From Acinetobacter wanghuae (lineage in GTDB: Bacteria; Pseudomonadota; Gammaproteobacteria; Pseudomonadales; Moraxellaceae), in the NCBI RefSeq assembly GCF_009557235.1, contig NZ_CP045650.1, positions 2,430,001 through 2,462,000 on the forward strand: a stretch of DNA of 32,000 nt. The letters run 5' to 3'. Under the pieces are notes generated by a model. The model was not told the DNA's origin and made no database searches. It worked only from the letters and a program-made list of their open reading frames with translations. Shown here piece by piece: positions 3,268 through 31,883 of the stretch. The position numbers and the translations under genes were made by a program. Each line of letters starts with the position of its first letter. Positions within the stretch are counted from its first letter, which is position 1.

Positions 3268-3714
3268 TTATTCATCCCAGCTAGAGGTTGAAGAAAGAGA
3301 ACATACTGCTGCACCTTTAACCCAACATTTTTCACCACGATGATTTAATGCCACCATACCAGTACTACTTTGAGAATTCTGTGGGGTCGCGACTAATGTC
3401 CATCCATTGCGGGTAACATTTTCTAACGTCATCTCATAAAACACTGTACCCTGACTTGGGTATTTCACAGTCATTGATCGTCCTAGATCAGCTAATGTCA
3501 TTGGAGTATTATTAATTAAATACCCACCTTTTACTGCTTTATATTTTTGTAGATCTCCGGCAATTATCATCATTTCGGCTTTTACTTCTGCGCGACTGAC
3601 TTTTTGCTTATACTGTGTATAAGATGGATAAGCAATTGCTGCTAAAATAGCGATAATAGCAACTACAATCATGAGTTCAATCAATGTAAATCCTTTGGTA
3701 TTACCAAGATTCAT
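3268..3714 (-). CDS. pilE: Type IV minor pilin, PilE-like (positional equivalent of A. baylyi comF)
   Basis: Class III signal: MNLGNTKG|[27 protein letters not shown] at 3714 is preceded by GGGGGG. C-terminal Cys pair (CWVKGAAVC). Last gene of the minor-pilin operon; overlaps the previous gene by 14 nt. Confidence 0.75.
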
Positions 3715-4210
3715 AATCCCCCCCACAATCATTATATCCCTTTACAGCATCTATAGTTCTTGTCATACAGCGAATACCTGTACTTGATAGTAAAAGATCA
3801 TAATTCCGCGGTTGTTTTAGCGCCCCACTATGACTACTACGCTCCGCCTTGATCACCCAATTTTGCCCCAAGACAGTTGTATCTGTTAAAGGTTTTTTAG
3901 ACTCTTGATCAACTAGTGTAATTTTATACAATGCAGAAGTTGCATTGCTTCCAATAGGCAAATATAACTCACCTGTAGAAGCATCGTAACCTGAATATAA
4001 ATAAGTCGCATTAAACCCTTTATAGCTAAAGTTTTTATTTTTAAAGCGTTCCAGCTCAGCAGAAAGTCGTAAGACTTCCTGCTGAGCTTTTTTTAAATCT
4101 TTACGTTCTATATAAGTTCGATAATTGGGATAGGCAATTGCAGAAATTATTGCAATGACTATTACCGCTATCATCAACTCTATAAGGGTAAATCCATTAT
4201 TTTTTTTCAT
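3701..4210 (-). CDS. Type IV pilin-like protein (positional equivalent of comE; occupies the pilY2 slot of Pseudomonas)
   Basis: MKKNNG|[24 protein letters not shown] prepilin signal. Immediately follows pilY1. Confidence 0.7.
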
Positions 4211-4218
4211 GATCGACC

Positions 4219-7200
4219 CTATTGAGCTTCATACCAACGCAGCTGTTTTAGTTTTACAGCATTATCAAATAATTGACATTGAGGTAGATTCTTATTGACT
4301 GGCAATGCACAATCAACAGGCGTTGGATTATCACGATTCACAATTAAGCCCAACGTACTAATTTTATTGCCATACCCCTGGCCAATACCTGTACCCAAAA
4401 TACCTGCGCCTAGTTTTACACGGTTAGGTGATGTTGTACCTGTTGTATAGAAATCACATTTACCATAAGGTAAGCAATATTGATACAGATAAGAATCCCC
4501 TTTTACACCTCCGCCACAGCTTCCAGAGATACCTGTCCCATCCTTGTGGAATACATTGACATATAACATACCATCTAATGCATATATATCATTCATACCT
4601 TTATATGAGCCTGATGTACTTGAAAATGAATGTTTCCAACCAGCATTAAACATATTGCCGGTTTTTCTTGGTACAGCACCACCAATAGTTAAGCTTTTGA
4701 GTGTGTTTGCTTTAGTTGTATTTAAACTATAGTCGGCTGCATAAAGGTCTTTAGCAATAACATCATTATCATAAACAACAAAAACACCATCATTAGCACT
4801 TTGTGTACTATCTGCTAACGGAGCACTTCTATTTCCTGAACTAAATGCAACTGCTGCAAAAAGCCCTCCTGTGTCAGTATCCGTATGCACCGAAACACTT
4901 GGCATCTCATAGAAACGTGGACTTAAACCATTTAATTTATGCTCGGTAAACAATGTAACTGTACGTGCCCCGAATACATTTTTCTTGGCTTCATTAATCT
5001 CTTCTTTATCTTTGTTAGGATCTGTTTCAGTAGGTTGTCCAATAACAGGATTATTGTTTAAGTCTACTCGGAACGCTTGGCCTGCTAAATCTGCAAAATA
5101 GAGATGATCAGCTAGACCATCAGCATTACGGTCAATGGCATTAATTTGACTTACAACGCTGTATTGCAAATCACTATTTGCCGTAAAACGAATCTGACTA
5201 TCTGTCGGCGTGTCATTATTATCTACACTCGTCCACCATAGTAATTCTCCATTTTGAGCATCAAACATATAGACGCCAGCACCGATCTTATTGGTTTGTT
5301 GGTACGTTGGACACTCATAACCTTTGTTCGTTGCATTAGCGTCCTCAGTACAACTTACCGTACCTTCAGCATCATAACCACCACCTACAAACATCACGAG
5401 TTTTTTCGCACCACCCCAGTTTACATAAGCCAAAGTTGGTTTAGACCAACTTTGTCCCATACGTTTCAATGGCTGAGCGCTATTAGAATCTTCTGGATTA
5501 ATGTGGAACATCATTTCCGGATTCTGAAGATCCGTCAAATTTAAAGCATAATAGCTCTTGCCACCCATACGCAGACCACCATAAATCCACTGATGACCTT
5601 TTAAAGCTGCGCTTTCATCTTCATCAGTTTCTGTTCGATCGGAGTCTTTTACAGTGAGTAGACCATTTTTTGTTGTAGTGTATTGCGTATGTGCAACCCA
5701 AGGTGCATCTATGCCATAAAATAAATTTGACATACCACCTGTGGTTTTATCATTTAACAATAAAGCCTGTTTTTGATTCACCATCATTTCATGTGGCAAG
5801 AATCCAAAAACTTCATTACCTGTAGAAACATTAACTACATGCAAAATACCCTGTGTGCTGCCATACATTAAGTAATCTTTACGATTAGTGGTAACTAAAG
5901 CATTATTTTGAACAGAAACCTGCCCTTCTTGTGTTAACAACACTGGTGTCGAGTGCATTACAGCACCTAGACGCTTATCTGTGGCATAGGTACTTAAATT
6001 GGCTTTAGTAAAACCACTCGGCAATTCATTTAACTTATAACCTAAGGCATTTAGCCAATACAGTTTGTCAGAATCCCCAGCGAAAGCACCATCAAATAAT
6101 GCATCAACATCTACAACTTGCAAATCATTACCAGCTGATGCTGTCGAACCGGTAAGCGATCGATTGGTAAAAATTTTACGATGCGTGGTTACTTTTCCAT
6201 CTGTGAGAAAATCTGCGCCAACTTTTAATTGCCCTAAGACACCACCAGCCCAAAAGCCTTGTGCAGCGTCATTTAATGCACCATTAGTAGAGATTAAACG
6301 CTGTAAACCATCTGCAGAAAATAATTCACCATTTTTAATTCTATATTTATTTAAATTACCCATCCATATTTGGCTTACACTAGAAACTGTAGGTTGGAAT
6401 GATGCGTAATAAGCCTCGTTCTGCAGTGTAGTTGGGTTTAAAGCATCAACTGGAATTGTTGGTGTTCCTGTAGCAACAGGTTTAATATCTACTTCAACTT
6501 TTCGAACAAAGTCTAGAATACTGTTTCGAATATCATCAGAATTTTCAGCATAGTAGAATCCACCACCACCATATTCATCACTTCCCCATTTACACGCATT
6601 ATACGCATCCTTATTGTAACCAGTTGGATTCGCCCGAACTAAGGCTTCACAATCCTGCGTATCTTTTAAGTCTTCAAAAGATGAACCAAATCCAACAACT
6701 GCAGTTTTTATTGTCATATTACTTGGATTTTGGGTTTTATCCTTGAGCTTTTTAGCATATGCACCTATATATTCCCACCCACCTGTTTCACCATCAAAGA
6801 CACTCGCTTGAATAGTTGGAGATGCTAATATATTTGCTGTTGGCTTATTACTAAAACCATGGGAACCTAAAGTTAGATTCATAATAGTACGTGCCATGGA
6901 ATCTTTTGTAGAGTTTGGGGCACCATCTGTCAAAAAGTAAATTCCATTACCATCACATTGGCTTGTACTAGCACCTGCACGATATTTATCACCATCCTTC
7001 GAAGTAGCAACAGAGTGTGTAAAACCACCGACCAAATTATCCTTATTATCACTAGTTAATGAAAATGGGCTAGTGCGATAAGAGACCATATTTTTTACAT
7101 GATTAAGATGGTGACTCCAAACTTTCGCACCAATTGGTTCAATATCCATTGGTTCATGGTCTACTTTCATCCACCCTCCCCATCGCCATCCTACAGGTAA

Positions 7201-8469
7201 TGAACGATGTAAGAACCAAGCATCCGTAATACTACTCGTTGTCGCCCTGTATTTATTCCACAGATGGTTAATAACCTCTTGCTCATTTTTATACTGTGAA
7301 GGTGTTACAGTTATCCAACCACCATTCCCATCTGGTTTTTTAATGACCACCAATGCCCCTGGACCATTATTGTCAAAGAATTTCCCTGGGTATTTGCTAT
7401 CCATCCCCCTATTCCACTGGTTATCACAAAACATAGAGGTTGCACCTAAAGCCGTACCCGTATTTCCATCTAATCCCACACAAACGTAATACAATTGCTC
7501 TTGCGTATTTGTATTTCTAATTATAGAAGATCCATCATAAAGAACACCTAGATTTGATGGCTTTGTCAATTTCCCTGTCGTTGTGCCCATCATATAAGCA
7601 CCTGCTTCTGCATATGCATGCGCAGTAGGTGTACCACTAGAAGCTTTAAAATTATTTGGATACGTATTACTTGTTAATGTTAAATCATATTGAACAGTTC
7701 CAACTTTTGGTGCTGGGTTTCCATTCCCCATTGTCTTTGTATCTACTGATTCAATCGCTGCTAGTTCCTCAATTAAGCGCTTTCTTTGATCATGGGTTAG
7801 CTCTGCCACCGGTACTAAGATTTTTCCGGAATGACCGTCAACTAATTCTCGTCTATTTGAACCACTTGTACCAATTTTAATATCCGTCTTAGCTGAAAAA
7901 TGCCCTAAACCAATTTTCACATTATTATCAAGACTAGTATCAGATAACAATTGTATCATTGCATCTTTTAACCGAGATAATCTGTCAAACTTGCCTGTCT
8001 CAGATTCAATTAACTTACCCTTTTCATCTATGGTTGCGTCACCGCACCCTCTTAAATAATAAGAAATAGCTTGACCACCTACAGTAACTGTTTTTTTAAA
8101 AGCTGTTTTTCCTTTAGTATCACTACCAGCTCTAGTGTCTATAGCATTATAAACCCATTGTGTATAATCTATTGAAGGGTTAGAGTTATCTCCCTCCCTT
8201 TCTTTAACCGTATCTGGTTTGCATAACGATTGATTAACATCACCCGGACTACCAAACTTATTATTTTTTGGCAAAACAAGGGAACTTATCCCCATACTAC
8301 CTGAGGTATCAAGCATTAATAAAATACCTGTTTTACCTTTTTCAGAATCAGAGTAAATACTAATATCACTCGCTTGACTCATTGGAATGGCACTACAAAC
8401 CGTGAGAGTCAATGCAGTCGACACTGAAGCAGAAAATAATTTTTTTTGAAATGTCTTCATTTTATTCAT
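4219..8469 (-). CDS. pilY1: Type IV pilus tip adhesin / biogenesis factor PilY1 (ComC-like): N-terminal vWA domain plus C-terminal PilY1 beta-propeller
   Basis: 1416 aa. Contains a signal peptide, a MIDAS motif DTSGS (aa 54-58), later vWA blocks (SGTPTAHAYAEAG and IYFLTDGAPN), and the C-terminal calcium loop DRNADGLAD. Lies between pilX and the pilE-like genes. The start could instead be the second ATG at 8460, which has better RBS spacing. Confidence 0.9.
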   Translation of the reverse strand: MNKMKTFQKKLFSASVSTALTLTVCSAIPMSQASDISIYSDSEKGKTGILLMLDTSGSMGISSLVLPKNNKFGSPGDVNQSLCKPDTVKEREGDNSNPSIDYTQWVYNAIDTRAGSDTKGKTAFKKTVTVGGQAISYYLRGCGDATIDEKGKLIESETGKFDRLSRLKDAMIQLLSDTSLDNNVKIGLGHFSAKTDIKIGTSGSNRRELVDGHSGKILVPVAELTHDQRKRLIEELAAIESVDTKTMGNGNPAPKVGTVQYDLTLTSNTYPNNFKASSGTPTAHAYAEAGAYMMGTTTGKLTKPSNLGVLYDGSSIIRNTNTQEQLYYVCVGLDGNTGTALGATSMFCDNQWNRGMDSKYPGKFFDNNGPGALVVIKKPDGNGGWITVTPSQYKNEQEVINHLWNKYRATTSSITDAWFLHRSLPVGWRWGGWMKVDHEPMDIEPIGAKVWSHHLNHVKNMVSYRTSPFSLTSDNKDNLVGGFTHSVATSKDGDKYRAGASTSQCDGNGIYFLTDGAPNSTKDSMARTIMNLTLGSHGFSNKPTANILASPTIQASVFDGETGGWEYIGAYAKKLKDKTQNPSNMTIKTAVVGFGSSFEDLKDTQDCEALVRANPTGYNKDAYNACKWGSDEYGGGGFYYAENSDDIRNSILDFVRKVEVDIKPVATGTPTIPVDALNPTTLQNEAYYASFQPTVSSVSQIWMGNLNKYRIKNGELFSADGLQRLISTNGALNDAAQGFWAGGVLGQLKVGADFLTDGKVTTHRKIFTNRSLTGSTASAGNDLQVVDVDALFDGAFAGDSDKLYWLNALGYKLNELPSGFTKANLSTYATDKRLGAVMHSTPVLLTQEGQVSVQNNALVTTNRKDYLMYGSTQGILHVVNVSTGNEVFGFLPHEMMVNQKQALLLNDKTTGGMSNLFYGIDAPWVAHTQYTTTKNGLLTVKDSDRTETDEDESAALKGHQWIYGGLRMGGKSYYALNLTDLQNPEMMFHINPEDSNSAQPLKRMGQSWSKPTLAYVNWGGAKKLVMFVGGGYDAEGTVSCTEDANATNKGYECPTYQQTNKIGAGVYMFDAQNGELLWWTSVDNNDTPTDSQIRFTANSDLQYSVVSQINAIDRNADGLADHLYFADLAGQAFRVDLNNNPVIGQPTETDPNKDKEEINEAKKNVFGARTVTLFTEHKLNGLSPRFYEMPSVSVHTDTDTGGLFAAVAFSSGNRSAPLADSTQSANDGVFVVYDNDVIAKDLYAADYSLNTTKANTLKSLTIGGAVPRKTGNMFNAGWKHSFSSTSGSYKGMNDIYALDGMLYVNVFHKDGTGISGSCGGGVKGDSYLYQYCLPYGKCDFYTTGTTSPNRVKLGAGILGTGIGQGYGNKISTLGLIVNRDNPTPVDCALPVNKNLPQCQLFDNAVKLKQLRWYEAQ

Positions 8470-8477
8470 CTCCGACC

Positions 8478-9170
8478 TTATTTGATCAACTGCGGATTAG
8501 CACCCACGGTATAGTCAGCTTTTTGGGTGTTAAATGGGATATTCCATTGCATGAAGCAAGCTGATACTTCAGCAGCTCTTTTTCGAAAACAATTTTCAAT
8601 CTGAGTAGAAGTTGCGCTAGAAAAACTAGGTAAAACTGAAATTACAGTTGCACTAATATTATTTAAAACCATAGGAATACTCGTCAAAGAAGCCCCTAAG
8701 CTAGTGCCTTTTGGCACCAAAGACAGTGGATCAGCATTATTAATATTTTTTCTTAAATAAACCTGTGAAAGTACAGCAGATCGACCTGTGGCATATTGGG
8801 TTGCTTTACAAAAACCATTTACACCATTTTTTGTCGTACCACCTTGTGGATCAATCACGCTCGCATTTTGCATAGAAAAAAATGTAGATTGAGACGCGCG
8901 ATAACAAAATACCAATTCATCATCTGCATTATTTGCATCATTAAAATAACTATACATACCGTCAGCCGCGAGTTGTCGAGCCACTTGTTTGGGATCCTCT
9001 AAATTAAATAAAGCTGCATTCGAATTTTCTAGTAACAATGCTTGTACTTGACTATTAGTAGCTAGCCTCAAACCCAACACACCAGATTTGATTGCCCAAG
9101 TTCCTATTGAAACAATAAGAACCAACATCACAAGAACAATAATCAGTGCTGAACCAAGTTGACGTCTCAT
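8478..9170 (-). CDS. pilX: Type IV pilus minor pilin PilX
   Basis: MRRQLGSALIIVLVMLVLIVSIG is a PilX-type hydrophobic N-terminus. Its position between pilW and pilY1 fits. TAATG stop/start overlap with pilW. Confidence 0.75.
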   Translation of the reverse strand: MRRQLGSALIIVLVMLVLIVSIGTWAIKSGVLGLRLATNSQVQALLLENSNAALFNLEDPKQVARQLAADGMYSYFNDANNADDELVFCYRASQSTFFSMQNASVIDPQGGTTKNGVNGFCKATQYATGRSAVLSQVYLRKNINNADPLSLVPKGTSLGASLTSIPMVLNNISATVISVLPSFSSATSTQIENCFRKRAAEVSACFMQWNIPFNTQKADYTVGANPQLIK

Positions 9171-10111
9171 TAGAATGCTCCCAATGTATTTCTAAAACTT
9201 ACAACTTGTGTAATAGGCTGACGTAAGTATTGGCTATTTTTAGTATTAGGTTTTAATGTAATATCTTGACCCGCGATCTTATATGTAGCTTGGGTATTAA
9301 ATCTAGAATCACTACCTATAGATTCTGATGATGCAATTAATAGTCCGATTTCAACCGCGCCAATAGAATGATAATCCTGTTTATCTGTTACATCATCTGG
9401 CATCAAATTATCTAAGTATTCTTGAATGGTTACATATCTGAGTTGCTTTGCTGGATTTTTAACTAAAAAGCGAATCTTAAAAGCATCTACATTTTGTAAA
9501 ACCAGCTGCCCTTGTGCTCCCAAACCAACAACTTCAGTTGAGGTGGTCGTATAATAATAACCAGCATCACAATAAAGACCATAACGATCAAGAGCGCCTG
9601 GAATTTGCTGCTCATTTGGTAACTTATCTAGATAATAACGATACACATAAGTTCGACCAGTGATGATTTTAATACCTTCACAATCATATTGTTCATCCCC
9701 CCTAATATCGGGTACAAATTGAATAGTCAGCTGATCACTTGATGAACCAAGGGCTAAATTTGTGTCATCATTATCTAATCCAAATCTTGTGAAATACTTC
9801 GAGTCAGCTCCTGAACCCACCGCCGTAGGTAAATTACTTGCAGCAAAAATGACACCAGAACCAATATCTTTATTATTAATTTTTTGTTCAGAAGGGGTAT
9901 TTAAATTAGCATGTCTAATCTCATGCGCCATTTGAGCAAGGCCAAAATTAGCGTTCTGTTGTAAACTAGACATCCCTGACTGAAAATTCATTGATTTCTG
10001 AGCATTCATAAATAATGCTAATGCTGCGGCAATAATCAATAACCCCAATACCAAAGCAATCATTAATTCAAGAAGGGTAAAACCACGTTGTATTTTTTTG
10101 TAGTTAATCAT
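9170..10111 (-). CDS. pilW: Type IV pilus minor pilin PilW (ComB-like)
   Basis: MINYKKIQRG|FTLLELMIALVLGLLII prepilin signal. ATG at 10111; the ORF-track extension to 10144 is rejected. Overlaps the pilV stop by 8 nt. Confidence 0.85.
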   Translation of the reverse strand: MINYKKIQRGFTLLELMIALVLGLLIIAAALALFMNAQKSMNFQSGMSSLQQNANFGLAQMAHEIRHANLNTPSEQKINNKDIGSGVIFAASNLPTAVGSGADSKYFTRFGLDNDDTNLALGSSSDQLTIQFVPDIRGDEQYDCEGIKIITGRTYVYRYYLDKLPNEQQIPGALDRYGLYCDAGYYYTTTSTEVVGLGAQGQLVLQNVDAFKIRFLVKNPAKQLRYVTIQEYLDNLMPDDVTDKQDYHSIGAVEIGLLIASSESIGSDSRFNTQATYKIAGQDITLKPNTKNSQYLRQPITQVVSFRNTLGAF

Positions 10112-10631
10112 AGTTATAGACCTCCACAATAACGCATTGTGCACCTGGAGAATACGAAGTACTGTCCGTGCACGGTGTAGCTCCAGCTGCGATTTCTGAG
10201 GCAGCTGTTTGCGTTGTCTTATCAGCAGGGATCGTATCCCCCCAAGCTACATATACACATTTTCTTTTAAAGTCTTTATCAGTCCCCTGACAATCTAAAA
10301 TTGCGAGACGCATACCTTCGTGATCTGCACGTTTAGACACTTGAGCATAATCGTAAACAGCTAAGTCAGCTGGTGAACAATATTTTTTATCGCATTCTTC
10401 AGGTGTACCAGACGTTGCCAATTTATAGAATGCTAATCCATCACGATTCATTCGCATTCTTTCAGAAAGATCTCTGGCTAAATTCATTGCTTGAATGTTA
10501 TGCGCTGCTTCTTCACTTGCCATTATTGCTCTTACCTGCAAAGCTACAAACCCTAAAACAGCTATACTAAGCAGTAACAATGCAACCAACACTTCCACCA
10601 AACCAACGCCGATCTGTGATTTTGATTTCAT
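10104..10631 (-). CDS. pilV: Type IV pilus modification protein / minor pilin PilV
   Basis: MKSKSQIGVGLVEVLVALLLLSIAVLG is a PilV-type N-terminus (G-x-x-L-x-E-V-L-V-A). ATG at 10631 is preceded by GAGGG. Confidence 0.85.
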   Translation of the reverse strand: MKSKSQIGVGLVEVLVALLLLSIAVLGFVALQVRAIMASEEAAHNIQAMNLARDLSERMRMNRDGLAFYKLATSGTPEECDKKYCSPADLAVYDYAQVSKRADHEGMRLAILDCQGTDKDFKRKCVYVAWGDTIPADKTTQTAASEIAAGATPCTDSTSYSPGAQCVIVEVYNYD

Positions 10632-10639
10632 AACACCCT

Positions 10640-11062
10640 CTAACATGTTGTTTGATTTTTGTTGTACACAACAGAGCCATTAGTATTAAATCGAATAACT
10701 GCTTTTAAGGCATCGTTCTTTACATGCTTAAGGACGAAACATTGATTTGCCCCGACTAAGTATCCAAAATAATTATATTTTAGTAATGATGGTGCTGTTG
10801 CCCATACTACATGTTCTAAAGGAGTCCACGACTCATCGCCCCCTATACCCGTTGCTAAACTTAGCGTCTTTTCTTTTTTTCTTAATATAGCTTCGGAGCG
10901 TGTCTGCGAGGCCAATAAGACAATTTCATTAGCAGCACTATTTAATTGATTTTGTCTTATTTGGTTTACAAATGAAGGCGCCGCCATCATGGCAATAATA
11001 GCAAGTACTGCAATAGTCACCATTAATTCAATTAAGGTGAATCCATTTCCCCTGACTCGCAT
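10640..11062 (-). CDS. fimU: Type IV minor pilin FimU (GspH/FimT family)
   Basis: MRVRGNG|FTLIELMVTIAVLAIIAMMAAPSF. ATG at 11062 is preceded by GGAGAG. First gene of the operon. The 21-aa ORF-track extension is rejected. Confidence 0.75.
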   Translation of the reverse strand: MRVRGNGFTLIELMVTIAVLAIIAMMAAPSFVNQIRQNQLNSAANEIVLLASQTRSEAILRKKEKTLSLATGIGGDESWTPLEHVVWATAPSLLKYNYFGYLVGANQCFVLKHVKNDALKAVIRFNTNGSVVYNKNQTTC

Positions 11063-11149
11063 ATTCTCTCCATAAACACAAATGATTACCCTATTACAAA
11101 TAATAACCAATTTAAGATCAAACACATCTTTTTATAGGATAAAAGGTAT

Positions 11150-17152: not shown

Positions 17153-17168
17153 TATTTCCACCCCAACG

Positions 17169-17196
17169 AAAAAGCCAGCAGTATTGCTGGCTTTTT
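17169..17196. terminator. Bidirectional terminator between bfr and the convergent OTase gene
   Basis: aaaaagccagca-gtat-tgctggcttttt. Confidence 0.75.
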
Positions 17197-17212
17197 CGTA
17201 CTGATATCTAAT

Positions 17213-18850
17213 TTATCTTTTCGGCATTTCCGCAATCAAATCTTCGTAGCTCAATTGCATTTTTTGCACACGATCTAAGCGTAATAACTGATGCTTCGCT
17301 TGATCTTCATAGCCGTTATAAGCCAACAATTTGGCATATTTAATCAGATTATATTTAGTCGGATAACTCAAAATCAATTTTTCAATCTCATCCAATTCTG
17401 CTTTTGATACATCGCTATAAGCATTAAGACGAATCCAATCAATACGATGATTAAATTCAGTCAGCAGATAAATCGGACCCTGATCTTGAATACGTTCAGG
17501 TTGATGCTCATAACGCACCGTCTCTGCCATTTTGCTCACTGCCACATCATAATCACGATAAATCACAATCAGCAGCAAAAGCCCTATTCCAAACACAATC
17601 TTCATCGCAATTGGCGGCAGTGTGATTGTTTTTAAATCTTTCCGCTGCGCCAGCACCGTCCCAATAATAAAACCAACCGGCAATAAGAAATAAGCATAAT
17701 TTTGCGGAAATTCAAACATGGCATGGGTGACAAAAGCGCCAATCATGAGCATCCCAATCACAGATTCAGGCGTGTTGACAAACTTCTGTAAGCGATAGCC
17801 CAAATAGCCGAAATATGCCAAAAATGGCACACCGACAATGATGCCATTCCACAGTAAAAAATCGAGAATAAAGTTATGCGCGCTGCGAATCCAAACAGGT
17901 CCTTCGACGGTATCTGAAATCGACACAAATGCACTACTGGTTTGATACCATCCATAGCCTAGCCAAGGTTTTGCTTCTACCGCGGCAAGCATTTGCTGCC
18001 AAATCGCGACACGTGACATATCCCCTGTCGCACGTGAGACCACGCTACGACTACGAATAACGTCTGCATCTGTAAACTGTGTCATCAATTGACTTAGGAT
18101 CGGGAACAGCCAAATAAAGCCAATAAACACTGCAAGCCATAGCGCGCTATAAAACCATTTTAAGCGAAGCACTGCTCTATATTGGTAATAGCTCAAATAT
18201 ACTAAAATCAATAGCGCTGCGACCCAAGCAGTACGTGACTGACTTAAAGCAATGCCCATCACAATAATCAAACCGCCGAGCACCGACCACATTGTTTTTA
18301 ACTTGCGTTGTTCATACAGATACAGTGTTGCCATCAGAGACATAATGAGGAATGTCGCCATATTATTCGGTTGGGCAAAGTTGGCAAACGGTCGTGTTGT
18401 GCCGCTAATATTGACCATACCCGGCAAGATAGCATCTAAATTTGACCATTGGCACAGCGCAATGAGTCCAGTCACCACGCCAGAAATAACAAAAACATAA
18501 CTTAAGTAAGTAAAGGTTTGTTCCCTTTGATATTGCCCTTTTGAGAGTTGATAACCCAAGACACTCGCAAGCCAGAAACTAAAGATGAAAATAAAACCCA
18601 TCATTGCGGTATTAAAGAAAAACACCTGTCCCATAAGCAATTGCAGCAGTGGTACACATGCAAGCAGCAGCAATGGCAAAATTACTGTTGGCAATTTGAT
18701 TTTTTCTTTGAAGCAAATAGCCGCTAAAGCAAATAAGGCAAAAAATGCATATAGCTCACCTGTATAGGTCACCCAAGGGCGGTAATGGACAGGGATGAGC
18801 CATGCAAGGGAGATGAGTATGGCTGCGATGAGGGCAAGTGTGGCTTTCAT
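17213..18850 (-). CDS. pglL: PglL-type O-oligosaccharyltransferase (Wzy_C / O-antigen-ligase superfamily), probably the general protein O-glycosylation OTase
   Basis: Polytopic membrane protein with the blocks RPFANFAQPNNMAT, LSQSRTAW, PWLGYGWYQT, SAHNFILDFLLWNG and HAMFEFP. It sits next to bfr, where Acinetobacter pglL is found. ATG at 18850; the ORF-track TTG at 18871 is rejected. Confidence 0.7.
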   Translation of the reverse strand: MKATLALIAAILISLAWLIPVHYRPWVTYTGELYAFFALFALAAICFKEKIKLPTVILPLLLLACVPLLQLLMGQVFFFNTAMMGFIFIFSFWLASVLGYQLSKGQYQREQTFTYLSYVFVISGVVTGLIALCQWSNLDAILPGMVNISGTTRPFANFAQPNNMATFLIMSLMATLYLYEQRKLKTMWSVLGGLIIVMGIALSQSRTAWVAALLILVYLSYYQYRAVLRLKWFYSALWLAVFIGFIWLFPILSQLMTQFTDADVIRSRSVVSRATGDMSRVAIWQQMLAAVEAKPWLGYGWYQTSSAFVSISDTVEGPVWIRSAHNFILDFLLWNGIIVGVPFLAYFGYLGYRLQKFVNTPESVIGMLMIGAFVTHAMFEFPQNYAYFLLPVGFIIGTVLAQRKDLKTITLPPIAMKIVFGIGLLLLIVIYRDYDVAVSKMAETVRYEHQPERIQDQGPIYLLTEFNHRIDWIRLNAYSDVSKAELDEIEKLILSYPTKYNLIKYAKLLAYNGYEDQAKHQLLRLDRVQKMQLSYEDLIAEMPKR

Positions 18851-18888
18851 GAATGTATCAATGCTTTTCAATATTGCACATGATAAGC

Positions 18889-18920
18889 AAAAAGCAGATT
18901 AAAAGGTAATCTGCTTTTTC
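18889..18920 (-). terminator. Rho-independent terminator between the 243-aa gene and pglL
   Basis: Stem gcagatta / taatctgc with a 5-nt loop, flanked by A and T runs. On the minus strand it is followed by ttttt. Confidence 0.65.
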
Positions 18921-18934
18921 CATTTTTTAGCAAA

Positions 18935-19666
18935 TTAATTCCAAGGACGTAAATCGACTATCTTGAGTGGCTGACCATGTTTATCAAGTAATACAGTCAT
19001 GTCTGTTTGATTCGCTTTTAGGGGCACATAGCCCGATGCCGTAGGCGTGCTATTGAAAATTTTCTCTACCGTAGACTTTTCATTATAATTATATAAAGAA
19101 TCAAGATTTTTTATATAATTACCTTTAAGTAATATGTTTTGATCAAATTCAATATAACGGTCCGGCATTTGTGACAAAGATACTCCACCAAGGACTTCAG
19201 TAAATAAATCAGCTTGGCGTTTTTGAGGATCTTTCTGATTTTCAATCATTGCATATTGAGGTTTTAATAATGGGACATGATTGAATTTAGATTTTGCCTT
19301 GTCGATATGCTCTTCGAGAATCTCATTTTTTCGGACCAACTCAAAACGATCAACATTATAAACAATCCATGCAGGTCTACCTTGCTCAAGTGTAAATACG
19401 CCATACAATAAAGCTGAGATTTGAACCAAAATGATGATTGCTAGATCAAATTTTAACGATTTTTTATGCTCTTTATAGACCAACAATCCTAATAATGGAC
19501 CGATAGTGATATCAACAATAAACAACATTAAAATAATAGTTGTTACACCCACAGATTTTGCAAGTGGTGCTGGATACCAAAACAGAAACACTAAGCCAAG
19601 TAATAATATTGCCACGACCAGTGATATAACTAAATGTTTAATAAAGAATTTCAAACGTTTAGACAT
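18935..19666 (-). CDS. Polytopic membrane protein, tentatively a TfpX/TfpZ-family type IV pilin accessory protein
   Basis: 243 aa with 3-4 N-terminal TM helices (HLVISLVVAILLLGLVFLFWY; TTIILMLFIVDITIGPLLGLLVY; LAIIILVQISALLYGVF) followed by a soluble domain of about 150 aa. Its context is immediately downstream of pilA and the OTase. The family call is from memory of the architecture and was not searched. Confidence 0.45.
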   Translation of the reverse strand: MSKRLKFFIKHLVISLVVAILLLGLVFLFWYPAPLAKSVGVTTIILMLFIVDITIGPLLGLLVYKEHKKSLKFDLAIIILVQISALLYGVFTLEQGRPAWIVYNVDRFELVRKNEILEEHIDKAKSKFNHVPLLKPQYAMIENQKDPQKRQADLFTEVLGGVSLSQMPDRYIEFDQNILLKGNYIKNLDSLYNYNEKSTVEKIFNSTPTASGYVPLKANQTDMTVLLDKHGQPLKIVDLRPWN

Positions 19667-19672
19667 AATTAA

Positions 19673-21343
19673 TTACTTCGTATTTAATTGTGGTGTACTA
19701 CTATTTTTTTCAAATAGTGATGAAAGACCATTTTCTTGACGAGTACTAATTTTAGACAAATCTTTAAATAATGCATTTTTATTATAAAGAGCATTGTATA
19801 CATCAAGATAATAATTAGCTCTAACCATACTTCCATTAAAATAAAAAATTTGAGCCATTTTATACAAATTATATTCAGTTGGCTGGCTTTTCACATAATG
19901 CTCAAACAATTCCAAATTTGAATCAGGGTAATTATGATCTATTTTTGCAACAATAAAATCTGCTCGATCTGAAAACTGGGAAAATAACAGAGAATATTTA
20001 TGCTGTAATTTTCCAGTATTTTCCATGCCAGATGCATAACCAAAATCACTCAGCCACTGATCATACTGTTTAAATATTAAAGCATAGAAACAAATGCAAA
20101 TAAGAAAAATACATTGCTTTAATTTCTCATTAACTAAAAAATTTTTACAATTACAATCGATCAGTAATAAACCAATAAAGAAACCTAATGGAAATAAAAA
20201 ATAGCTATAATACAAAGGAAACTCAAGCTGAGCATGCACCAATATACATAACATCATCATAAACACATATAGTTGTGGCAAACTATGAATACTTAAAAAA
20301 ATTCGTTTTATAAGATACAAGCTATATCCAACAATTAAGAGGGCCAATGGAATGCCCACCCACAAAACTAAATCAATCATAATATTATGTGCGCTTGATA
20401 AATTCCCTTCATTTTTAAATAGAAGCACCCCTTCTAGCTGTGCGATTGTTGTTTGAAACCAACCATACCCTAACCATGGTTGTTGCATCGCGGCATAGTA
20501 CATATGCTTCCACATTTCAATACGACCTAACCCACCATTTAGTCGTTCTTGCACTGGAATTGGCTTGACTAGATTTAGATATTCAGAAATTTCAGCATTG
20601 AATATCAAAATAAATAAATAGATAAATAGAGCAGTTAAAGCAATGTAAGGCGTTGATTTTTTTTTAAAATTATTTTTATTAACTATGCAAATAATAAAAA
20701 ATACACATAAAATAATCCATGTCGTTCTCGATTGAGTTAATGCAAGTGCCCAAACCTCAAAAGGGAGGAGCAGAATTAAAAATATATTTTTAGACTTCAT
20801 ATGCTCATATAAAAACAGAAGACTACAAATACTGAGCATAAGCAATGTTGCCAAATGATTCGGCTGACCTAAATTTGCATAAGGTCGATTATGACTTAAA
20901 TTTAAGATATAAGGATGAGAAATTTGCAACCATTGCGCAATGGCGAATAGACTACTGATCAATCCAATAAGCGTAAAAAAATACGCAATATATTGAATAA
21001 TTTTATTTTTATCAGCCAAGTGATGGCTATTATAGCCATATAAAACAGTGGCTACAAAAGCAAAAATGAAAATGAAACTAAAAAATGCCGTAGAAAAATA
21101 ATACACCTGTCCAAAGCTAAATTGAACTAAAGGAATGAGACATATACAAAGAATAGGAATAGTAATTTTAGGCAGTTTAACTTCTTTTTTATAAAATAAG
21201 CCAAGAGATAAAACTAAGCCTAAAAACCACAAAAAATCTTGCGAGGATGAAGTCCATGGAAAGACTGACAAACATATAAAGTAAGATAATCCAAAACAAA
21301 GTAAAATCGTAAAAATTATAATATTCATTGTCATTTCATTCAT
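19673..21343 (-). CDS. PglL-type O-oligosaccharyltransferase paralogue, probably pilin-specific (PglS / PglL-ComP-like rather than the short TfpO class)
   Basis: 556 aa, collinear with the 17213..18850 protein: RPYANLGQPNHLAT, LTQSRTTW, PWLGYGWFQT, SAHNIMIDLVLWVG, HAQLEFP, plus a shared C-terminal P-x-x-YNL-x-K-x-A block. Directly downstream of pilA. Confidence 0.7.
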   Translation of the reverse strand: MNEMTMNIIIFTILLCFGLSYFICLSVFPWTSSSQDFLWFLGLVLSLGLFYKKEVKLPKITIPILCICLIPLVQFSFGQVYYFSTAFFSFIFIFAFVATVLYGYNSHHLADKNKIIQYIAYFFTLIGLISSLFAIAQWLQISHPYILNLSHNRPYANLGQPNHLATLLMLSICSLLFLYEHMKSKNIFLILLLPFEVWALALTQSRTTWIILCVFFIICIVNKNNFKKKSTPYIALTALFIYLFILIFNAEISEYLNLVKPIPVQERLNGGLGRIEMWKHMYYAAMQQPWLGYGWFQTTIAQLEGVLLFKNEGNLSSAHNIMIDLVLWVGIPLALLIVGYSLYLIKRIFLSIHSLPQLYVFMMMLCILVHAQLEFPLYYSYFLFPLGFFIGLLLIDCNCKNFLVNEKLKQCIFLICICFYALIFKQYDQWLSDFGYASGMENTGKLQHKYSLLFSQFSDRADFIVAKIDHNYPDSNLELFEHYVKSQPTEYNLYKMAQIFYFNGSMVRANYYLDVYNALYNKNALFKDLSKISTRQENGLSSLFEKNSSTPQLNTK

Positions 21344-21372
21344 AAAAAAAGCTGACCGAAGTCAGCTTTTTA
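21344..21372 (-). terminator. Rho-independent terminator or attenuator immediately after pilA
   Basis: On the minus strand: aaaaagcugac-UUCG-gucagc followed by U7. The U-tract abuts the ATG of the OTase gene. Confidence 0.7.
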
Positions 21373-21383
21373 ATACCTTCAGA

Positions 21384-21944
21384 TTAGAAAGTACCTGCTG
21401 TTTGAGGAACACGGCATGTTGCTGGTAAATATTTTTGTTTATCAGCATTACCAACTAAACCACATGACCATGATTTGATAAGAGCATTTGTTGCTGCATC
21501 ACCACCTGTTTGATTATTACCAGTGCCAGAAACGGCTGTAATACTTAAAGGAACCTGACCAGCAGCATCTGATGTTGGTGTCATATGAATTTGTAAACCA
21601 CTTGCACCTTTTAAAGAAGCATCTTTAGTTAAGGTCACACGAATTTGACCAACAATATTACCTGTTTTAGAAACTACAATTTCTTGTACGTATTTCGTTG
21701 CTGGAGTACCAGATGCTGAACCTTGCTCACATCCCCATGTATTTGTACCTGATGGAATAGTACCAGCGTCTACAGCTTCGGTTACCGCTGTACGACATGA
21801 AGACGCAGCTAAAATACCTTCAGATACTTTTGCACGAACTGTATAGTCTTGGTAAGCTGGAAGTGCAACTGCAGCAAGAATACCGATGATCGCTACCACG
21901 ATCATTAATTCGATAAGGGTAAAACCCTTTTGAACTGATTTCAT
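21384..21944 (-). CDS. pilA: Type IVa major pilin (PilA / ComP-like)
   Basis: MKSVQKG|[36 protein letters not shown]. Two Cys pairs, including a C-terminal D-region loop ([17 protein letters not shown]). ATG at 21944 with a GGAGAA RBS; the ORF-track start at 21956 is a GTG. Confidence 0.9.
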
Positions 21945-22006
21945 AACATTCTCCACAAATGTTTTATGTTTATTTATAAGCTTAATTGTTAAAGCTATTT
22001 ATATTT

Positions 22007-22022
22007 AGCATCTAACGTGCCA
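22007..22022 (-). promoter_or_regulatory. Sigma54 (RpoN) -24/-12 promoter of pilA
   Basis: The minus strand reads TGGCACGttagATGCT against the consensus TGGCACG-N4-TTGCW. GG and GC have exact spacing. It lies about 60 nt upstream of the pilA ATG. Confidence 0.65.
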
Positions 22023-27111: not shown

Positions 27112-30100
27112 TTATTGTGGATCAGCTTGAGTGGTTTTTAACAGCGTTTGTAAGTTCGCGGCTTTTGGTTTCACCAACCAGAACTTACGACTGTAGAAAT
27201 CAAACTCGTTGCGGATTTTGTACGCCCAAGCACTACCTGTTTCTTGAATATGTTCATCTAAGATACGACCCAAGAACGATTTATGTTCTTCCATCGCTTC
27301 TGTCGAAATACGATTCAGCTCAATCAATTCATGGTTGTAATGATCGACAAAGTCATTATCTAAATCAAGTACATAAGCAAAACCGCCTGTCATACCTGCA
27401 CCGAAGTTATGTCCAACTTTACCGAGCACAGTCACAATACCACCGGTCATATATTCACAGCAATGGTCGCCTGCACCTTCAATCACCGCGAAAGCACCTG
27501 AGTTACGTACTGCAAAACGTTCGCCTGCAGTTCCAGCAGCAAAGAGCTTACCGCCTGTTGCACCATACAAGCATGTGTTCCCAATAATTGCCGTATTTTG
27601 AGTTTGGAACGGTGAACCTTTTGGTGGGAAGATTGAAATTCTTCCGCCTGCCATACCTTTACCCACATAGTCATTGGCATCGCCTTCAAGTTTGATATGC
27701 AAACCACCTGCATTCCAAACCCCGAGCGACTGACCTGCTGTACCATTCAAATTCACTTTGACTGGATGGGCTTCCATGCTCAAGTTGCCATAACGACGTG
27801 CAATTTCACCTGAAAGGCGCGCACCAATTGAACGGTCACAGTTACCAATGCTGAAGTAGTATTCACCACCGGTGCCTTCTTCAATGGCAGGTAAAATTTC
27901 AGCCACCATTTTTTCAGCCAACACGCCTTTATCAAACGGTGCATTGCCTTCTACTTGGCAATACTGTGCTTTACCTTCCGCAGCAGGATGCGACTCAAGG
28001 AGTTTACTTAAATCTAAATGCCCATGCTTTTCAGTTTCACCCGGTAAAACTTCAAGTAAATCGGTACGACCAATCAAATCTTTTAAGCTTGATACACCAA
28101 GTGCTGCCAACCATTCACGGGTTTCTTCCGCAATAAAGGTGAAGAAGTTAATCAGCATTTGTGGCTCGCCAATGTAATGCTCTTGACGAAGATGATCTTG
28201 CTGCGTTGCGACACCAGTTGCACAGTTATTTAAGTGACAGATGCGTAGATATTTACAACCGAGTGCAATCATTGGCGTTGAGCCAAAGCCAAAGCTTTCA
28301 GCACCCAAAATCGCAGCTTTCACCACATCTAGACCCGTTTTCAAACCGCCATCGGTTTGTACACGGACTTTGCCACGCAAGTCATTCACACGAAGTGCTT
28401 GATGTGCTTCGCTTAAACCCAATTCCCACGGTGAACCCGCATGGTGAATTGAGGATAACGGAGATGCTGCTGTACCACCGTCATAACCTGAAATGGTAAT
28501 AAAGTCAGCATAGGCTTTTGCCACACCGGCAGCAATCGTCCCCACACCCGGTTCAGATACGAGTTTTACCGACACCATCGCTTGAGGATTGACTTGTTTT
28601 AAGTCAAAGATCAATTGTGATAAATCTTCAATCGAATAAATATCATGATGCGGTGGTGGTGAAATTAAAGTTACGCCCGGTACTGAGTAACGTAAACGTG
28701 CAATTAAGCCATTCACTTTACCACCTGGCAACTGACCACCTTCACCCGGTTTTGCACCTTGCGCGACTTTAATCTGCAATACTTCAGCAGAAGTTAAGTA
28801 CGCTGGTGTTACACCGAAACGACCCGATGCAATTTGTTTAATTTTCGAGTTACGAATCGTGCCGTAACGCGCAGGATCTTCGCCGCCCTCACCTGAATTT
28901 GAACGACCACCAATGGTGTTCATGGCAATTGCAATCGCTTCATGCGCTTCTGGTGACAATGCACCGAGAGACATACCCGCAGAGTCAAAACGTGGCAGAA
29001 TATCTTCTACAGATTCGACTTGCTCAACTGGAATTGAATTCTCAGTTTTAAGTTTAAATAGATCACGAATCGTCGCGATTGGACGGGTATTCACCAACTC
29101 TGCATATTCTTTAAAGTCAGCGTAGTTACCTGAACGCACGGCTTTGTGTAGCGAATTAATCACATCTGGGTTAAATGCGTGATATTCCTTACCGAACACA
29201 AATTTCAGCAAACCACCTTGATCAATCGGCTTACGATTTTTCCACGCAATATCTGCCAATTGTTTTTGATCATTTTCAAGATCTACAAAAGTTGCGCCTT
29301 GAATACGACTTGGTACACCTGCAAAACATGTATCAACCACTTCATTGGATAAACCAACAGCTTCGAAAAGCTGACCGCCACGATACGAAGCAACCGTTGA
29401 AATACCCATTTTTGATAAGACTTTGAGTAAGCCTTTTTCAATGCCTTTACGGAAATTATTTTGGGCATAAATTGGGTCACCCAATAACTCGCCTTTTGCG
29501 ATTAAATCATTAATCACATCATAGGCAAGATATGGATAGATTGCTGTTGCACCAAAGCCAAGTAAGACCGCAAATTGATGCGCATCGCGGGCAAAGCCTG
29601 TTTCAATCACTAAGTTTGCGTCGGTACGTAAACCTGCATTCATCAAATGATGATGAACTGCACCTGTCACCATAAAGGCATTGGCAGGCAAGTAACCTTC
29701 ACGAATTTTTTTATCAGACAGTACTAATAGAGTTTTGCCATCACGAATCGCTTGCGCGGATTCTTCACAAATACGTGTAATTGCGGCTTGCAGACCTTCA
29801 GTTTCCGCATAGTTCAGATCAATATCGGCAATTTCATAACCCGCCCGACCCAAAGTACGAATCTGATGCATTTTTGAATTAGACAAGACTGGGCTAGAAA
29901 CAATTAAGCGATCTGCGTGTTCAGGACCTTGTTCAAACACATTCTGTTCACGACCAAAACAGGTTTCCAACGACATCACAATCGATTCACGTAATGGATC
30001 GATCGGTGGATTGGTTACCTGTGCAAACTGCTGACGGAAGTAATCGGATACATGACGTACTTGACGAGATAACACCGCCATTGGCGTATCATCCCCCATT

Positions 30101-31593
30101 GAACCAACCGCTTCTTGACCACTTTCAGCAATGGGGCGTAACAATTGATCACGCTCTTCAAAGGTAACCATGAACATTTTTTGTGCCGCTTTCAAGGCGT
30201 CATTTTTTAAGCCTTGATCACATAAATATTCTTCAAGTTCTGGGCTACCTTGAACGCGCACAGAGTTCTCACGTAACCATTGACGATATGGACGCATGCG
30301 TTTGAGATGATTGCTCACATCACTGGTATCGAGTACTTTTCCAGTTTGCGTATCGACAACAAGGATCTGACCCGGACCGACACGACCTTTAGAAACGACA
30401 TCTTCAGGTTCATAGCCCCAAACACCAATTTCAGATGCGAGGGTGATGTAACCATTTTTGGTAATCACCCAGCGCGCAGGACGTAAACCATTACGATCGA
30501 GCATACAAATGGCATGTCGACCATCTTGAATCACAAGTCCAGCAGGACCATCCCACGCTTCCATATGCTTAGAGTTAAATTCGTAGAATGCACGTAAATC
30601 TGCATCTAAAGTTTCGACATTTTGCCATGCAGGTGGCACGAGCATACGCAGTGCACGGAATAAATCCATGCCACCACCGACCAAAATCTCAAGCATATTG
30701 TCTAAGCTCGATGAATCCGAACCGGTACGGTTGACGATTGGATTCAGCTCAGTTAAACCTGGCAATAATGGGTTTTCAAATTTTGGTGTACGTGCGACTG
30801 CCCAATTACGGTTTGCTGTAATGGTATTGATTTCACCATTGTGCGCGACATAGCGGAATGGTTGCGCTAAAGGCCAACGCGGCAAAGTATTGGTCGAGAA
30901 ACGTTGATGGAACACGACAATATGCGATTCTAAACGCTCATCCGCCAGATCTGTATAGAAGTCAGCAATGGCTGCTGGCATCATCAAACCTTTATAGCTA
31001 ATCACTGTTGAACATAAAGTGGTGACATAAAAAGAAGCATCATTCACCAATAATTGTTCTGCACGACGGCGTGCCATGAACAACTTACGGTTAAATTCAA
31101 CTTCAGTCACCCCAATTGGGCAATTCACAATAATTTGTTCAAATGCAGGTAAAGATTGCATCGCGATTGAACCCAATGCATCGTTATTGGTTGGCACGAC
31201 ACGCCAAGCAATAACTTTACAGCCTTCCGCTTCAATTTCTTTCGCAAGTACTTGCTTTGCATGTGCTGCAACAGCAGGATCTAAACTTAAAAATACCGTA
31301 CCGACAGCAAATACTTCACTGAGGGTAATATCACTCAGTCGTTTCGCTTCTTCACGGAAAAATGCTTTTGGCATCGCCAATAAAAGACCACAACCATCTC
31401 CGGTTTTGCCATCTGCGGCAATACCACCACGGTGGGTCATACAACTTAAACTATGAATCGCGGTCTTGACCAAGTGATGGCTTGCATCACCTTGCATGTG
31501 GGCAATTAAGCCAAAACCACAGTTATCTTTAAACTCATCGGGTTGATATAAACCTTGAGTGGGAGCTACATTGTTCGGCGATGGCATGTGCAT
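27112..31593 (-). CDS. gltB: Glutamate synthase (NADPH) large subunit
   Basis: 1493 aa. Ntn-amidotransferase N-terminus ...[16 protein letters not shown]/3Fe-4S central domain, C-terminal GXGXG repeat domain. The start is at 31593 or 31587. Confidence 0.95.
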
Positions 31594-31867: not shown

Positions 31868-31883
31868 AGCAAATTTTGTGCCA
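31868..31883 (-). promoter_or_regulatory. Sigma54 (RpoN) -24/-12 core promoter facing gltB
   Basis: The minus strand reads TGGCACaaaatTTGCT, an exact match to TGGCAC-N5-TTGCW. It lies about 275 nt upstream of the gltB ATG, and the ORF track shows no ORF in between. Confidence 0.5.

Follow-up and report, generated by a model that had tools for sequence, protein, structure and literature searches.

We analyzed a 32,000-nucleotide (nt) stretch of the Acinetobacter wanghuae genome (hereafter, the window) that contains an island of genes for a type IV pilin, two putative O-oligosaccharyltransferases (OTases; termed here OT1 and OT2) and a pilin accessory protein. The four proteins match consecutive accessions, from QGA11996 (OT2) to QGA11999 (PilA), and their genes all lie on the minus strand in the order pilA, OT1, tfpZ and OT2. 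The identities and linkage of the genes, the domains and phylogenetic positions of their products, cassette limits, base composition and the conserved promoter and terminators were either observed directly or computed. The first gene, pilA (open reading frame (ORF) 21384-21956, likely ATG at 21944), codes for a type IVa major pilin of 186 amino acids (aa) with the Pfam Pilin and N_methyl domains and the leader MKSVQKG/FTLIELM. It is followed by OT1 (19673-21343), which encodes a candidate O-OTase of PglL architecture with 556 residues, or 551 if the NCBI start (Met6) is used. Exactly 6 nt, without a terminator, separate the OT1 stop codon from the ATG of tfpZ (18935-19666), the gene for a 243-aa TfpZ/FimB-like type IV pilin accessory protein. 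OT2, an ortholog of the general O-OTase PglL, extends over 17213-18850 (ATG, 545 aa) or 17213-18871 (TTG, 552 aa), so that the two OTase genes are ~0.8 kb apart with tfpZ as the sole gene between them. In NCBI and UniRef the four products are labeled, respectively, as ‘pilin’, ‘O-antigen ligase family / Wzy polymerase domain-containing protein’, ‘TfpX/TfpZ family type IV pilin accessory protein’ and ‘polymerase / O-antigen ligase family protein’. Both the identities of the genes and their order agree with an earlier note on this DNA, down to the ORF positions and the 6-nt gap.

A sigma54-type -24/-12 promoter element (TGGCACGTTAGATGCT, 22007-22022, minus strand) is located 63 nt upstream of the pilA ATG and has one mismatch to TGGCAC-N5-TTGCW. 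By count alone such motifs are not above chance in the window (two versus 1.7 expected), so the assignment rests on positional conservation: in aligned upstream regions of 10 Acinetobacter loci the TTGGCA...TGC core is invariant and occupies the same position upstream of pilA or comP. Hairpins followed by a U-run, typical of intrinsic terminators, are found directly 3′ of pilA, tfpZ and OT2, all on the minus strand; their folding energies were compared with those of shuffled sequences to obtain z-scores. The terminator or attenuator between pilA and OT1 (21344-21371) has the stem AAAAAGCUGAC/GUCAGCUUUUU and seven U residues, with a minimum free energy of -14.5 kcal/mol (z-score -3.6), and the first ATG of the OT1 ORF abuts its U-run. 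An equivalent hairpin, although with a different stem sequence, is present in all 10 of the other pilin-OTase intergenic regions tested. The hairpin after tfpZ (18889-18919; -16.1 kcal/mol, z-score -4.6) separates the cassette described below from OT2, and a strong bidirectional terminator (17166-17199; -25.3 kcal/mol, z-score -7.1) lies between OT2 and the convergent bfr gene. Both the promoter and the terminators after pilA and tfpZ had been proposed in the earlier note; the terminators are borne out by their z-scores, while the promoter gains nothing from its motif count and is backed by the core conserved in the 10 loci.

The current classification of O-OTases distinguishes three protein-specific classes (TfpO, TfpM and PglS) and the general PglL, with PglL_A and Wzy_C_2 domains as marks of PglL and PglS (PMC12645811, a 2025 review). 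PglL-class enzymes combine Wzy_C, PglL_A and Wzy_C_2 domains within about 525-600 residues (PMC12645811, PMC9829042). OT1 (551 aa) and OT2 (545 aa) each carry all three domains above Pfam cutoffs; no NCBIfam model matched either of them. OT1 thus has the PglL-class architecture and does not belong to the short TfpO class, as had been claimed. The two enzymes are collinear end to end (29% identity over 530 aa, E-value 9e-67), and all the shared blocks listed in the earlier note are visible in this alignment. To call them paralogs, however, is an overstatement at 29% identity and a GC content of 30% versus 42%. Because of the same two differences, OT1 looks more like a gene brought in with a cassette than like a product of local duplication.

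We placed both enzymes in a tree of 47 OTases (535 columns, 100 bootstraps), constructed by neighbor-joining and not by maximum likelihood. OT2 falls into the general PglL clade together with A. baumannii PglL (99% bootstrap support), to which it is 39% identical over 538 aa. Its position adjoining bfr is conserved in most of the surveyed loci, and its GC content (0.421 versus 0.399 for the window) corresponds to core-genome composition. These sequence features identify OT2 as the general PglL (A1S_3176 type) of the Acinetobacter core genome, in line with the initial assignment. OT1 and its relatives form a clade of their own (100% bootstrap support) outside PglS, TfpO, TfpM and the general PglLs. 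All other PglL-like enzymes of Acinetobacter have the PglS clade (A. baylyi and A. soli, 100%) as their sister group, and TfpM and TfpO are placed far outside. Pairwise comparisons give a similar picture: OT1 is 30% identical to A. baumannii PglL (517 aa aligned, E-value 6e-75) and 31% identical to A. baylyi PglS (348 aa aligned, E-value 4e-35), and its BLAST similarity to TfpO and TfpM is not significant (E-value about 0.06). Apart from its PglL-class architecture, OT1 fits none of these four groups. It does not cluster with A. baylyi ADP1 PglS, it contains the PglL_A and Wzy_C_2 domains missing from TfpO and TfpM (420-460 aa, Wzy_C only), and it is set apart from the general PglLs by both its separate clade and its GC content of 0.30. 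Motifs of the catalytic region (RPYAN..QPN, QSRT.W, GYGW, SAHN and H..LEFP) are invariant across OT1 homologs that are 49-88% identical. In all 11 contexts of OT1-clade genes, the enzyme lies between a distinctive 169-191-aa pilin and tfpZ, with only a few nt between OT1 and tfpZ. On the strength of these sequence data, OT1 is best read as a candidate for a new pilin-dedicated O-OTase lineage.

To see how the island varies, one genome per species (GTDB) was scanned using a TfpZ alignment. The scan produced 29 loci, 28 from Acinetobacter and one from Moraxella osloensis, which were annotated against the window proteins; further contexts were added by exact protein look-up. The surroundings of the island form a conserved frame, which on the minus strand of the window reads gltBD, metal hydrolase, lemA, two TPM-domain genes, the island, bfr, bfd, ridA and spoT. 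The slot between the TPM genes and bfr turned out to be a mosaic pilin island with many alternative contents. The arrangement found in the window (type A: 169-191-aa pilin, OT1-clade OTase, tfpZ and pglL) recurs in A. pseudolwoffii, A. lwoffii, YH16052, sp. A2, ASP199 and several metagenomic contigs. In types B and C, found at five further loci (ANC 4862 (twice), Ca. A. avistercoris, A. lwoffii P134B and A. towneri), the OT1 position is occupied by other PglL-sized OTases (545-561 aa) that are 29-34% identical to both OT1 and OT2. The two type-B pilin-OTase-tfpZ cassettes of Acinetobacter sp. ANC 4862 reside on different contigs (L005 and L017 in our numbering of loci), with the canonical bfr-linked position in L017 only. 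Type D consists of pilin, tfpM (422 aa), tfpZ and pglL (A. parvus DSM 16617, L014). In type E, tfpZ directly follows the pilin gene, with or without pglL (L007 and L011 are examples that have no enzyme). Type F is represented by A. baumannii L035 (1811-7629), where pilA is followed by genes for Glucos_trans_II (506 aa), GtrA (116 aa), a family 2 glycosyltransferase (306 aa), a FimB/TfpZ-like protein (244 aa) and PglL; a Gtr-type (bactoprenol-glucose style) module is thus found where tfpO usually sits. Type G (A. higginsii and NIPH 2100; L015 3107-8735 and L016 3108-8735) comprises pilA, genes for sulfatase-family (454 aa), Wzy_C (394 aa) and beta-lactamase-fold (397 aa) proteins, a second pilin gene (140 aa), tfpZ and pglL. 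The sulfatase family includes phosphoform transferases, and a beta-lactamase-fold gene is also present in A. bouvetii (L009 6183-7379). Finally, tfpZ is missing from both the classical pilA-tfpO-pglL arrangement (type H, L033) and comP-pglS, which in addition has no adjacent pglL (type I; A. baylyi L030 and A. soli L031). The general rule is pilA, a variable modification module or none, tfpZ and pglL. The window locus is therefore a recurrent and automatically annotated type-A allele of a modular island, not the one-off hybrid that it was first taken for: the order is the same in 11 of 11 OT1-clade contexts, and other PglL-like lineages fill the same slot at the five further loci.

Composition and alignments delimit the exchangeable part of the island. 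Along the window, GC content drops from about 0.40 to about 0.30 over 19000-21500, and individual genes follow suit (OT1 0.296, tfpZ 0.333). All the pilin-linked OTases examined are AT-rich, with a GC content of 0.24-0.35 (OT1, types B and C, PglS 0.24, TfpM 0.27 and TfpO 0.31), whereas all OT2s have 0.42-0.47. The AT-richness of OT1 is not an artifact of coding for a membrane protein, because OT2, likewise a membrane protein of the same fold, has a GC content of 0.42. Compared with the contig of a close relative, Ca. A. avistercoris (L025), the window is 92% identical over 24444-21771, from lemA into pilA, unrelated from 21771 to 19004 (the end of tfpZ) and 72% identical thereafter. The left breakpoint is therefore inside pilA, at about codon 58. 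Comparison with the type-A loci L004 and L039 is complementary: pilA, OT1 and the first ~114 codons of tfpZ make up a homologous block, and the flanks differ. Taken together, the exchangeable low-GC cassette (19000-21771; GC about 0.30 versus 0.40 in the flanks) covers the 3′ two-thirds of pilA, OT1 and tfpZ.

The 243-aa protein is TfpX/TfpZ-like, as proposed: NCBIfam model NF041437 matches residues 4-242 of 243 with 297 bits (cutoff 200), and homologs of the protein carry the precomputed Pfam FimB domain (PF27166). These homologs, 2459 in total, are mostly from Acinetobacter. In the homologs compared with the window protein, the N-terminal (membrane) half is 60-83% identical and the C-terminal half 37-65%. 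Proteins of the TfpX/Y/Z family have three N-terminal transmembrane helices and a periplasmic mixed alpha/beta C-domain; TfpY-like proteins, which are dispensable for modification, help pili to assemble and are able to cross-complement (PMC11841053). An adaptor role has been suggested for TfpX with TfpW (bioRxiv 10.1101/2020.04.19.049825). The phylogeny of TfpZ is uncoupled from OTase type, and even type-A cassettes have TfpZs from three or more lineages of the TfpZ tree, with C-domains only 42-65% identical. TfpZ is thus a generic module that recombines independently and not a partner specific to OT1; it follows pilA in the 29 species-representative loci with a range of modification modules or none, and in the contexts as a whole it is seen with TfpM, with Gtr-type and other modules, or with no enzyme. 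This pattern weakens the case for a role of TfpZ as an adaptor of the TfpX-TfpW kind.

The window pilA is syntenic with A. baumannii pilA and A. baylyi comP. We aligned its product with eight other OT1-linked pilins to define features of the type-A pilin. These are AASSCRT...WGCEQ, a variable Ser/Ala/Gly/Thr-rich stretch before KYV, a Ser/Thr-rich insert of ~25 aa and a CRxxQ tail. The window pilin ends in Phe (...QTAGTF) and has no C-terminal Ser/Thr acceptor of the TfpO/TfpM type. The ComP loop, as seen in an alignment with ComP of A. baylyi, A. soli and A. parvus, is also absent, and the Cys pair is placed differently (AASSC...WGC). The third-position GC content of pilA (21384-21944, minus strand) is 0.16, the lowest of the genes measured in the window, despite an average overall GC content (0.40); a possible reason is strong codon bias linked to high expression.

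Pilin-specific OTases are typically encoded beside their substrate, and PglL is not linked to its targets (PMC12645811). The published rule for Acinetobacter has two variants, pilA-tfpO next to pglL and comP-pglS with pglL at another place in the genome (PMC8457361). The window locus fits neither variant, as an enzyme of PglL/PglS architecture is found next to a non-ComP pilin, with both tfpZ and a general pglL adjacent. The first variant is represented by pilA-tfpO-pglL of A. baumannii and A. nosocomialis (PMC8457361, PMC12645811; L033). It uses the same slot as the window, between the TPM genes and bfr and the same succession of pilin, terminator, linked OTase and general PglL, to which OT2 is orthologous. 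However, TfpO (436 aa) lacks PglL_A and Wzy_C_2 and requires a C-terminal Ser, and the locus has no tfpZ. The comP-pglS loci of A. baylyi ADP1 (L030) and A. soli (L031) resemble the window in having an AT-rich gene for a PglL-sized three-domain OTase directly downstream of the pilin gene, in the same slot and with an intervening terminator. PglS acts on ComP-type pilins of 140-150 aa with a Cys-flanked sequon of 19-23 aa around Ser82/84 (PMC8457361), and transfer of glycans with glucose at the reducing end is a criterion of its class. The window pilin, about 40 aa longer, lacks this sequon (CxGV..I.S.....N....C), and L030 and L031 have neither the tfpZ nor the adjacent pglL of the window. Among the pilin-tfpM loci of Moraxellaceae (Knoot et al. 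2022, PMC9829042), A. parvus pilin-tfpM-tfpZ-pglL has the same four-gene frame as the window, yet TfpM is a TfpO-like enzyme of 422 aa that modifies a C-terminal Thr. The presence of tfpZ downstream of tfpM is not mentioned in that paper (PMC9829042).

Outside Acinetobacter, a similar gene order is found in P. aeruginosa groups IV (pilA-tfpW-tfpX) and V (pilA-tfpZ), in which a gene of the TfpX/Y/Z family comes last in the cassette and a terminator after pilA tunes accessory expression (PMC11841053; bioRxiv 10.1101/2020.04.19.049825). In pilA-tfpY, this terminator was shown experimentally to set the ratio of pilin to accessory protein (PMC11841053). In group IV, as in the window, the glycosylating enzyme precedes the accessory gene. 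The likeness of OT1 to TfpW, pointed out in the earlier note, nevertheless holds for gene order only, as TfpW belongs to the GT-C arabinosyltransferases and has no relationship to Wzy_C enzymes. Furthermore, no general PglL follows the Pseudomonas cassettes. The N-terminal half of the window pilin aligns best with Neisseria PilE (E-value about 1e-18), and its Ser/Ala/Gly/Thr/Pro-rich stretch is at the position of the PilE Ser63 site. In Neisseria, PglL glycosylates PilE and other proteins as one general enzyme that is not linked to its substrates; the window has two enzymes, one of them linked to the pilin. We found no paper on a pilin-linked OTase of PglL architecture next to tfpZ, in agreement with the claim that the three-gene arrangement is undescribed, although most subscription journals were outside the search and the absence is not proof.

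As a whole, the locus is best explained as a type-A allele of a hypervariable pilin island in which OT1 is dedicated to the pilin, TfpZ is an assembly helper and OT2 is the general PglL. We assign this explanation a probability of roughly 0.6. The activity of OT1, its dedication to the pilin, the residue that it modifies and the role of TfpZ are the parts that we infer. According to this explanation, the sigma54 promoter would drive pilA, and the hairpin after it would let only a fraction of transcripts continue into OT1 and tfpZ. OT1, inherited with its own long pilin type, would most likely transfer an undecaprenyl-pyrophosphate-linked glycan (in Acinetobacter, the capsule K-unit) to a Ser or Thr within one of the surface-exposed Ser/Thr-rich patches of the pilin. 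TfpZ, presumably a three-helix inner-membrane protein, would promote pilus assembly and not modification, by analogy with P. aeruginosa TfpY/TfpZ, and OT2, beyond the second terminator, would glycosylate many periplasmic and membrane proteins. The 11 of 11 linkage, the co-transferred block, the AT-rich composition, the invariant motifs and the conserved design of pilA, terminator and accessory gene all argue for a pilin-dedicated OT1. Several observations weigh against the explanation. Glycosylation of the pilin, which it takes as given, is itself a prediction from sequence. An invariant Ser/Thr was sought in the alpha-beta loop of the type-A pilins and none was found, so that no acceptor site can be named; (S/T)KYV was considered as a specific sequon and rejected, as it is also conserved in pilins without a linked OTase. 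The neighboring OT2 could itself glycosylate the pilin, as Neisseria PglL does PilE. The deep branches of the neighbor-joining tree that join OT1, as well as types B and C, to the general PglLs have low bootstrap support (31-70%). Lastly, the AlphaFold2 model of TfpZ, built from a 16-sequence alignment, has helices at 3-30, 41-65 and 71-95 followed by C-terminal strands, but is poor (mean predicted local distance difference test score 57, predicted template modeling score 0.30).

OT1 and TfpZ might, alternatively, constitute a two-protein glycosylation unit, with TfpZ as an adaptor either bringing the membrane-anchored pilin to OT1 or stabilizing it; the functional novelty would then lie in the pair and not in OT1 by itself. 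The 6-nt spacing without a terminator and the adjacency of the two genes in 11 of 11 OT1-clade loci are what such a unit would look like, but we consider it unlikely, since TfpZ homologs directly follow pilA without any enzyme (L007 and L011) and also follow TfpM (L014), Gtr-type (L035) and sulfatase/Wzy_C/beta-lactamase-fold (L015) modules. The spread of type-A TfpZs over at least three lineages with C-domains only 42-65% identical speaks against it too, and the P. aeruginosa group III and V pilins, which come with TfpY/TfpZ, are unmodified, with TfpY cross-complementing TfpZ (PMC11841053). A dedicated OT1-TfpZ pair was accordingly down-weighted, as TfpZ does not co-vary with OTase type. It is quite improbable, in turn, that OT1 is a second general or otherwise specialized PglL (for example, one using another donor, such as a glycan with glucose at the reducing end, or modifying other proteins) that merely hitch-hikes in the island. 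Its full PglL architecture, its 30-34% identity over >500 aa to general PglLs, as close as to anything, and the lack of an invariant acceptor residue in the pilin would all be accommodated. Strict co-inheritance with one pilin type, however, would not, nor would a composition as AT-rich as that of all known pilin-specific OTases, and the locus already has a general PglL, 70 nt downstream.

The public annotation of OT1 as an O-antigen ligase or a Wzy-type polymerase, acting on lipid-linked glycans or lipooligosaccharide, draws on the NCBI and UniRef names and on the Wzy_C domain, which is common to WaaL. We regard it as highly improbable. PglL_A scores above the cutoff, and the sole match of the OT1-clade profile in the PDB is the deposited ‘Oligosaccharyltransferase’ 9rmk_A (610 aa, E-value 3e-21), with no WaaL at E≤10; the clustering with WaaL or Wzy enzymes that would have spoken against a protein OTase was thus not observed. 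In addition, OT1 nests within the Acinetobacter PglL-like radiation and sits between a pilin gene and a pilin accessory gene. Just as little weight can be given to OT1 being a non-functional relic of a past cassette exchange. It has no obvious Shine-Dalgarno sequence and its start codon abuts the terminator, but the ORF is intact in 11 loci and the catalytic-region residues are invariant down to 49% identity.

What is new here, as far as sequence can tell, is OT1 as a distinct pilin-linked PglL-like lineage and tfpZ/fimB as a constant 3′ partner of diverse modification modules in Acinetobacter. Every component belongs to a known family, and the arrangement is recurrent and automatically annotated. 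A broader reading is tentative, and in our estimate it rather falls short of being likely: OT1-clade enzymes and, separately, two or three other PglL-like lineages in the same slot would be new pilin-dedicated O-OTase classes beyond TfpO, TfpM, PglS and PglL, with a new sequon on the long pilin, and TfpZ/FimB would be a constant hub coupling any modification module to pilus assembly.

Several other features were noticed in the window and in the related loci. A minor-pilin operon of the fimU-pilVWX-pilY1-pilE-like type (3268-11125, minus strand) is located ~6 kb from the island. It codes for N_methyl proteins, a Tt1218-like protein, PilW, a 230-aa ORF without a Pfam match, a 1416-aa PilY1-like protein and two ComP_DUS-type minor pilins. 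A perfect sigma54 consensus, TGGCACAAAATTTGCT, occurs at 31868-31883 (minus strand), ~275 nt upstream of the gene for the large subunit of glutamate synthase (27112-31593); with 1.7 near-matches expected per window, it may be a chance match. Many related loci (L008 and L024, also L005, L006, L012, L013, L022, L023, L028, L040 and L041) have two opposed pilin genes, one with a full leader and the other without the 5′ end. These genes share inverted repeats of 64-73 nt in the alpha1-coding region, 0.8-1.2 kb apart (L008 6294-6357 and 7165-7228; L024 4538-4610 and 5806-5878), and conserved genes for 645-, 688- and ~118-aa proteins without a Pfam match are usually found just upstream. This arrangement resembles an invertible promoter/leader segment, by which expression could be switched from one pilin body to the other (compare Piv inversion in Moraxella). 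Small ORFs lie between pilA and tfpZ at three loci, encoding a 127-aa PARP-like protein (L021 7613-7996), a 120-aa product (L010 7611-7973) and a 206-aa DUF5677-like protein (L013 7367-7987); the PARP-like (ADP-ribosyltransferase-fold) assignment is barely above the Pfam cutoff (27.6 versus 26.7 bits). Mobile and toxin-antitoxin genes were also seen: in Acinetobacter sp. ASP199 (L036 9856-10950), bfr and bfd are separated by an inserted IS605 OrfB/TnpB gene, and a PhdYeFM/TacA toxin-antitoxin pair lies directly upstream of the pilin gene at a metagenomic type-A locus (L037 420-911).

If OT1 is indeed tied to one pilin type, it would blur the rule that PglL-like enzymes are ‘general’ and not linked to their substrates, and an enzyme of PglL architecture with such a tie would be an obvious next candidate. 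More broadly, as seen in the survey, non-baumannii Acinetobacter swap whole cassettes of pilin and modification enzyme at one locus while keeping the TfpZ/FimB gene and the core PglL. Such exchange bears on the antigenic diversity of pili, on phage resistance and on the still-unknown function of TfpY-like proteins.

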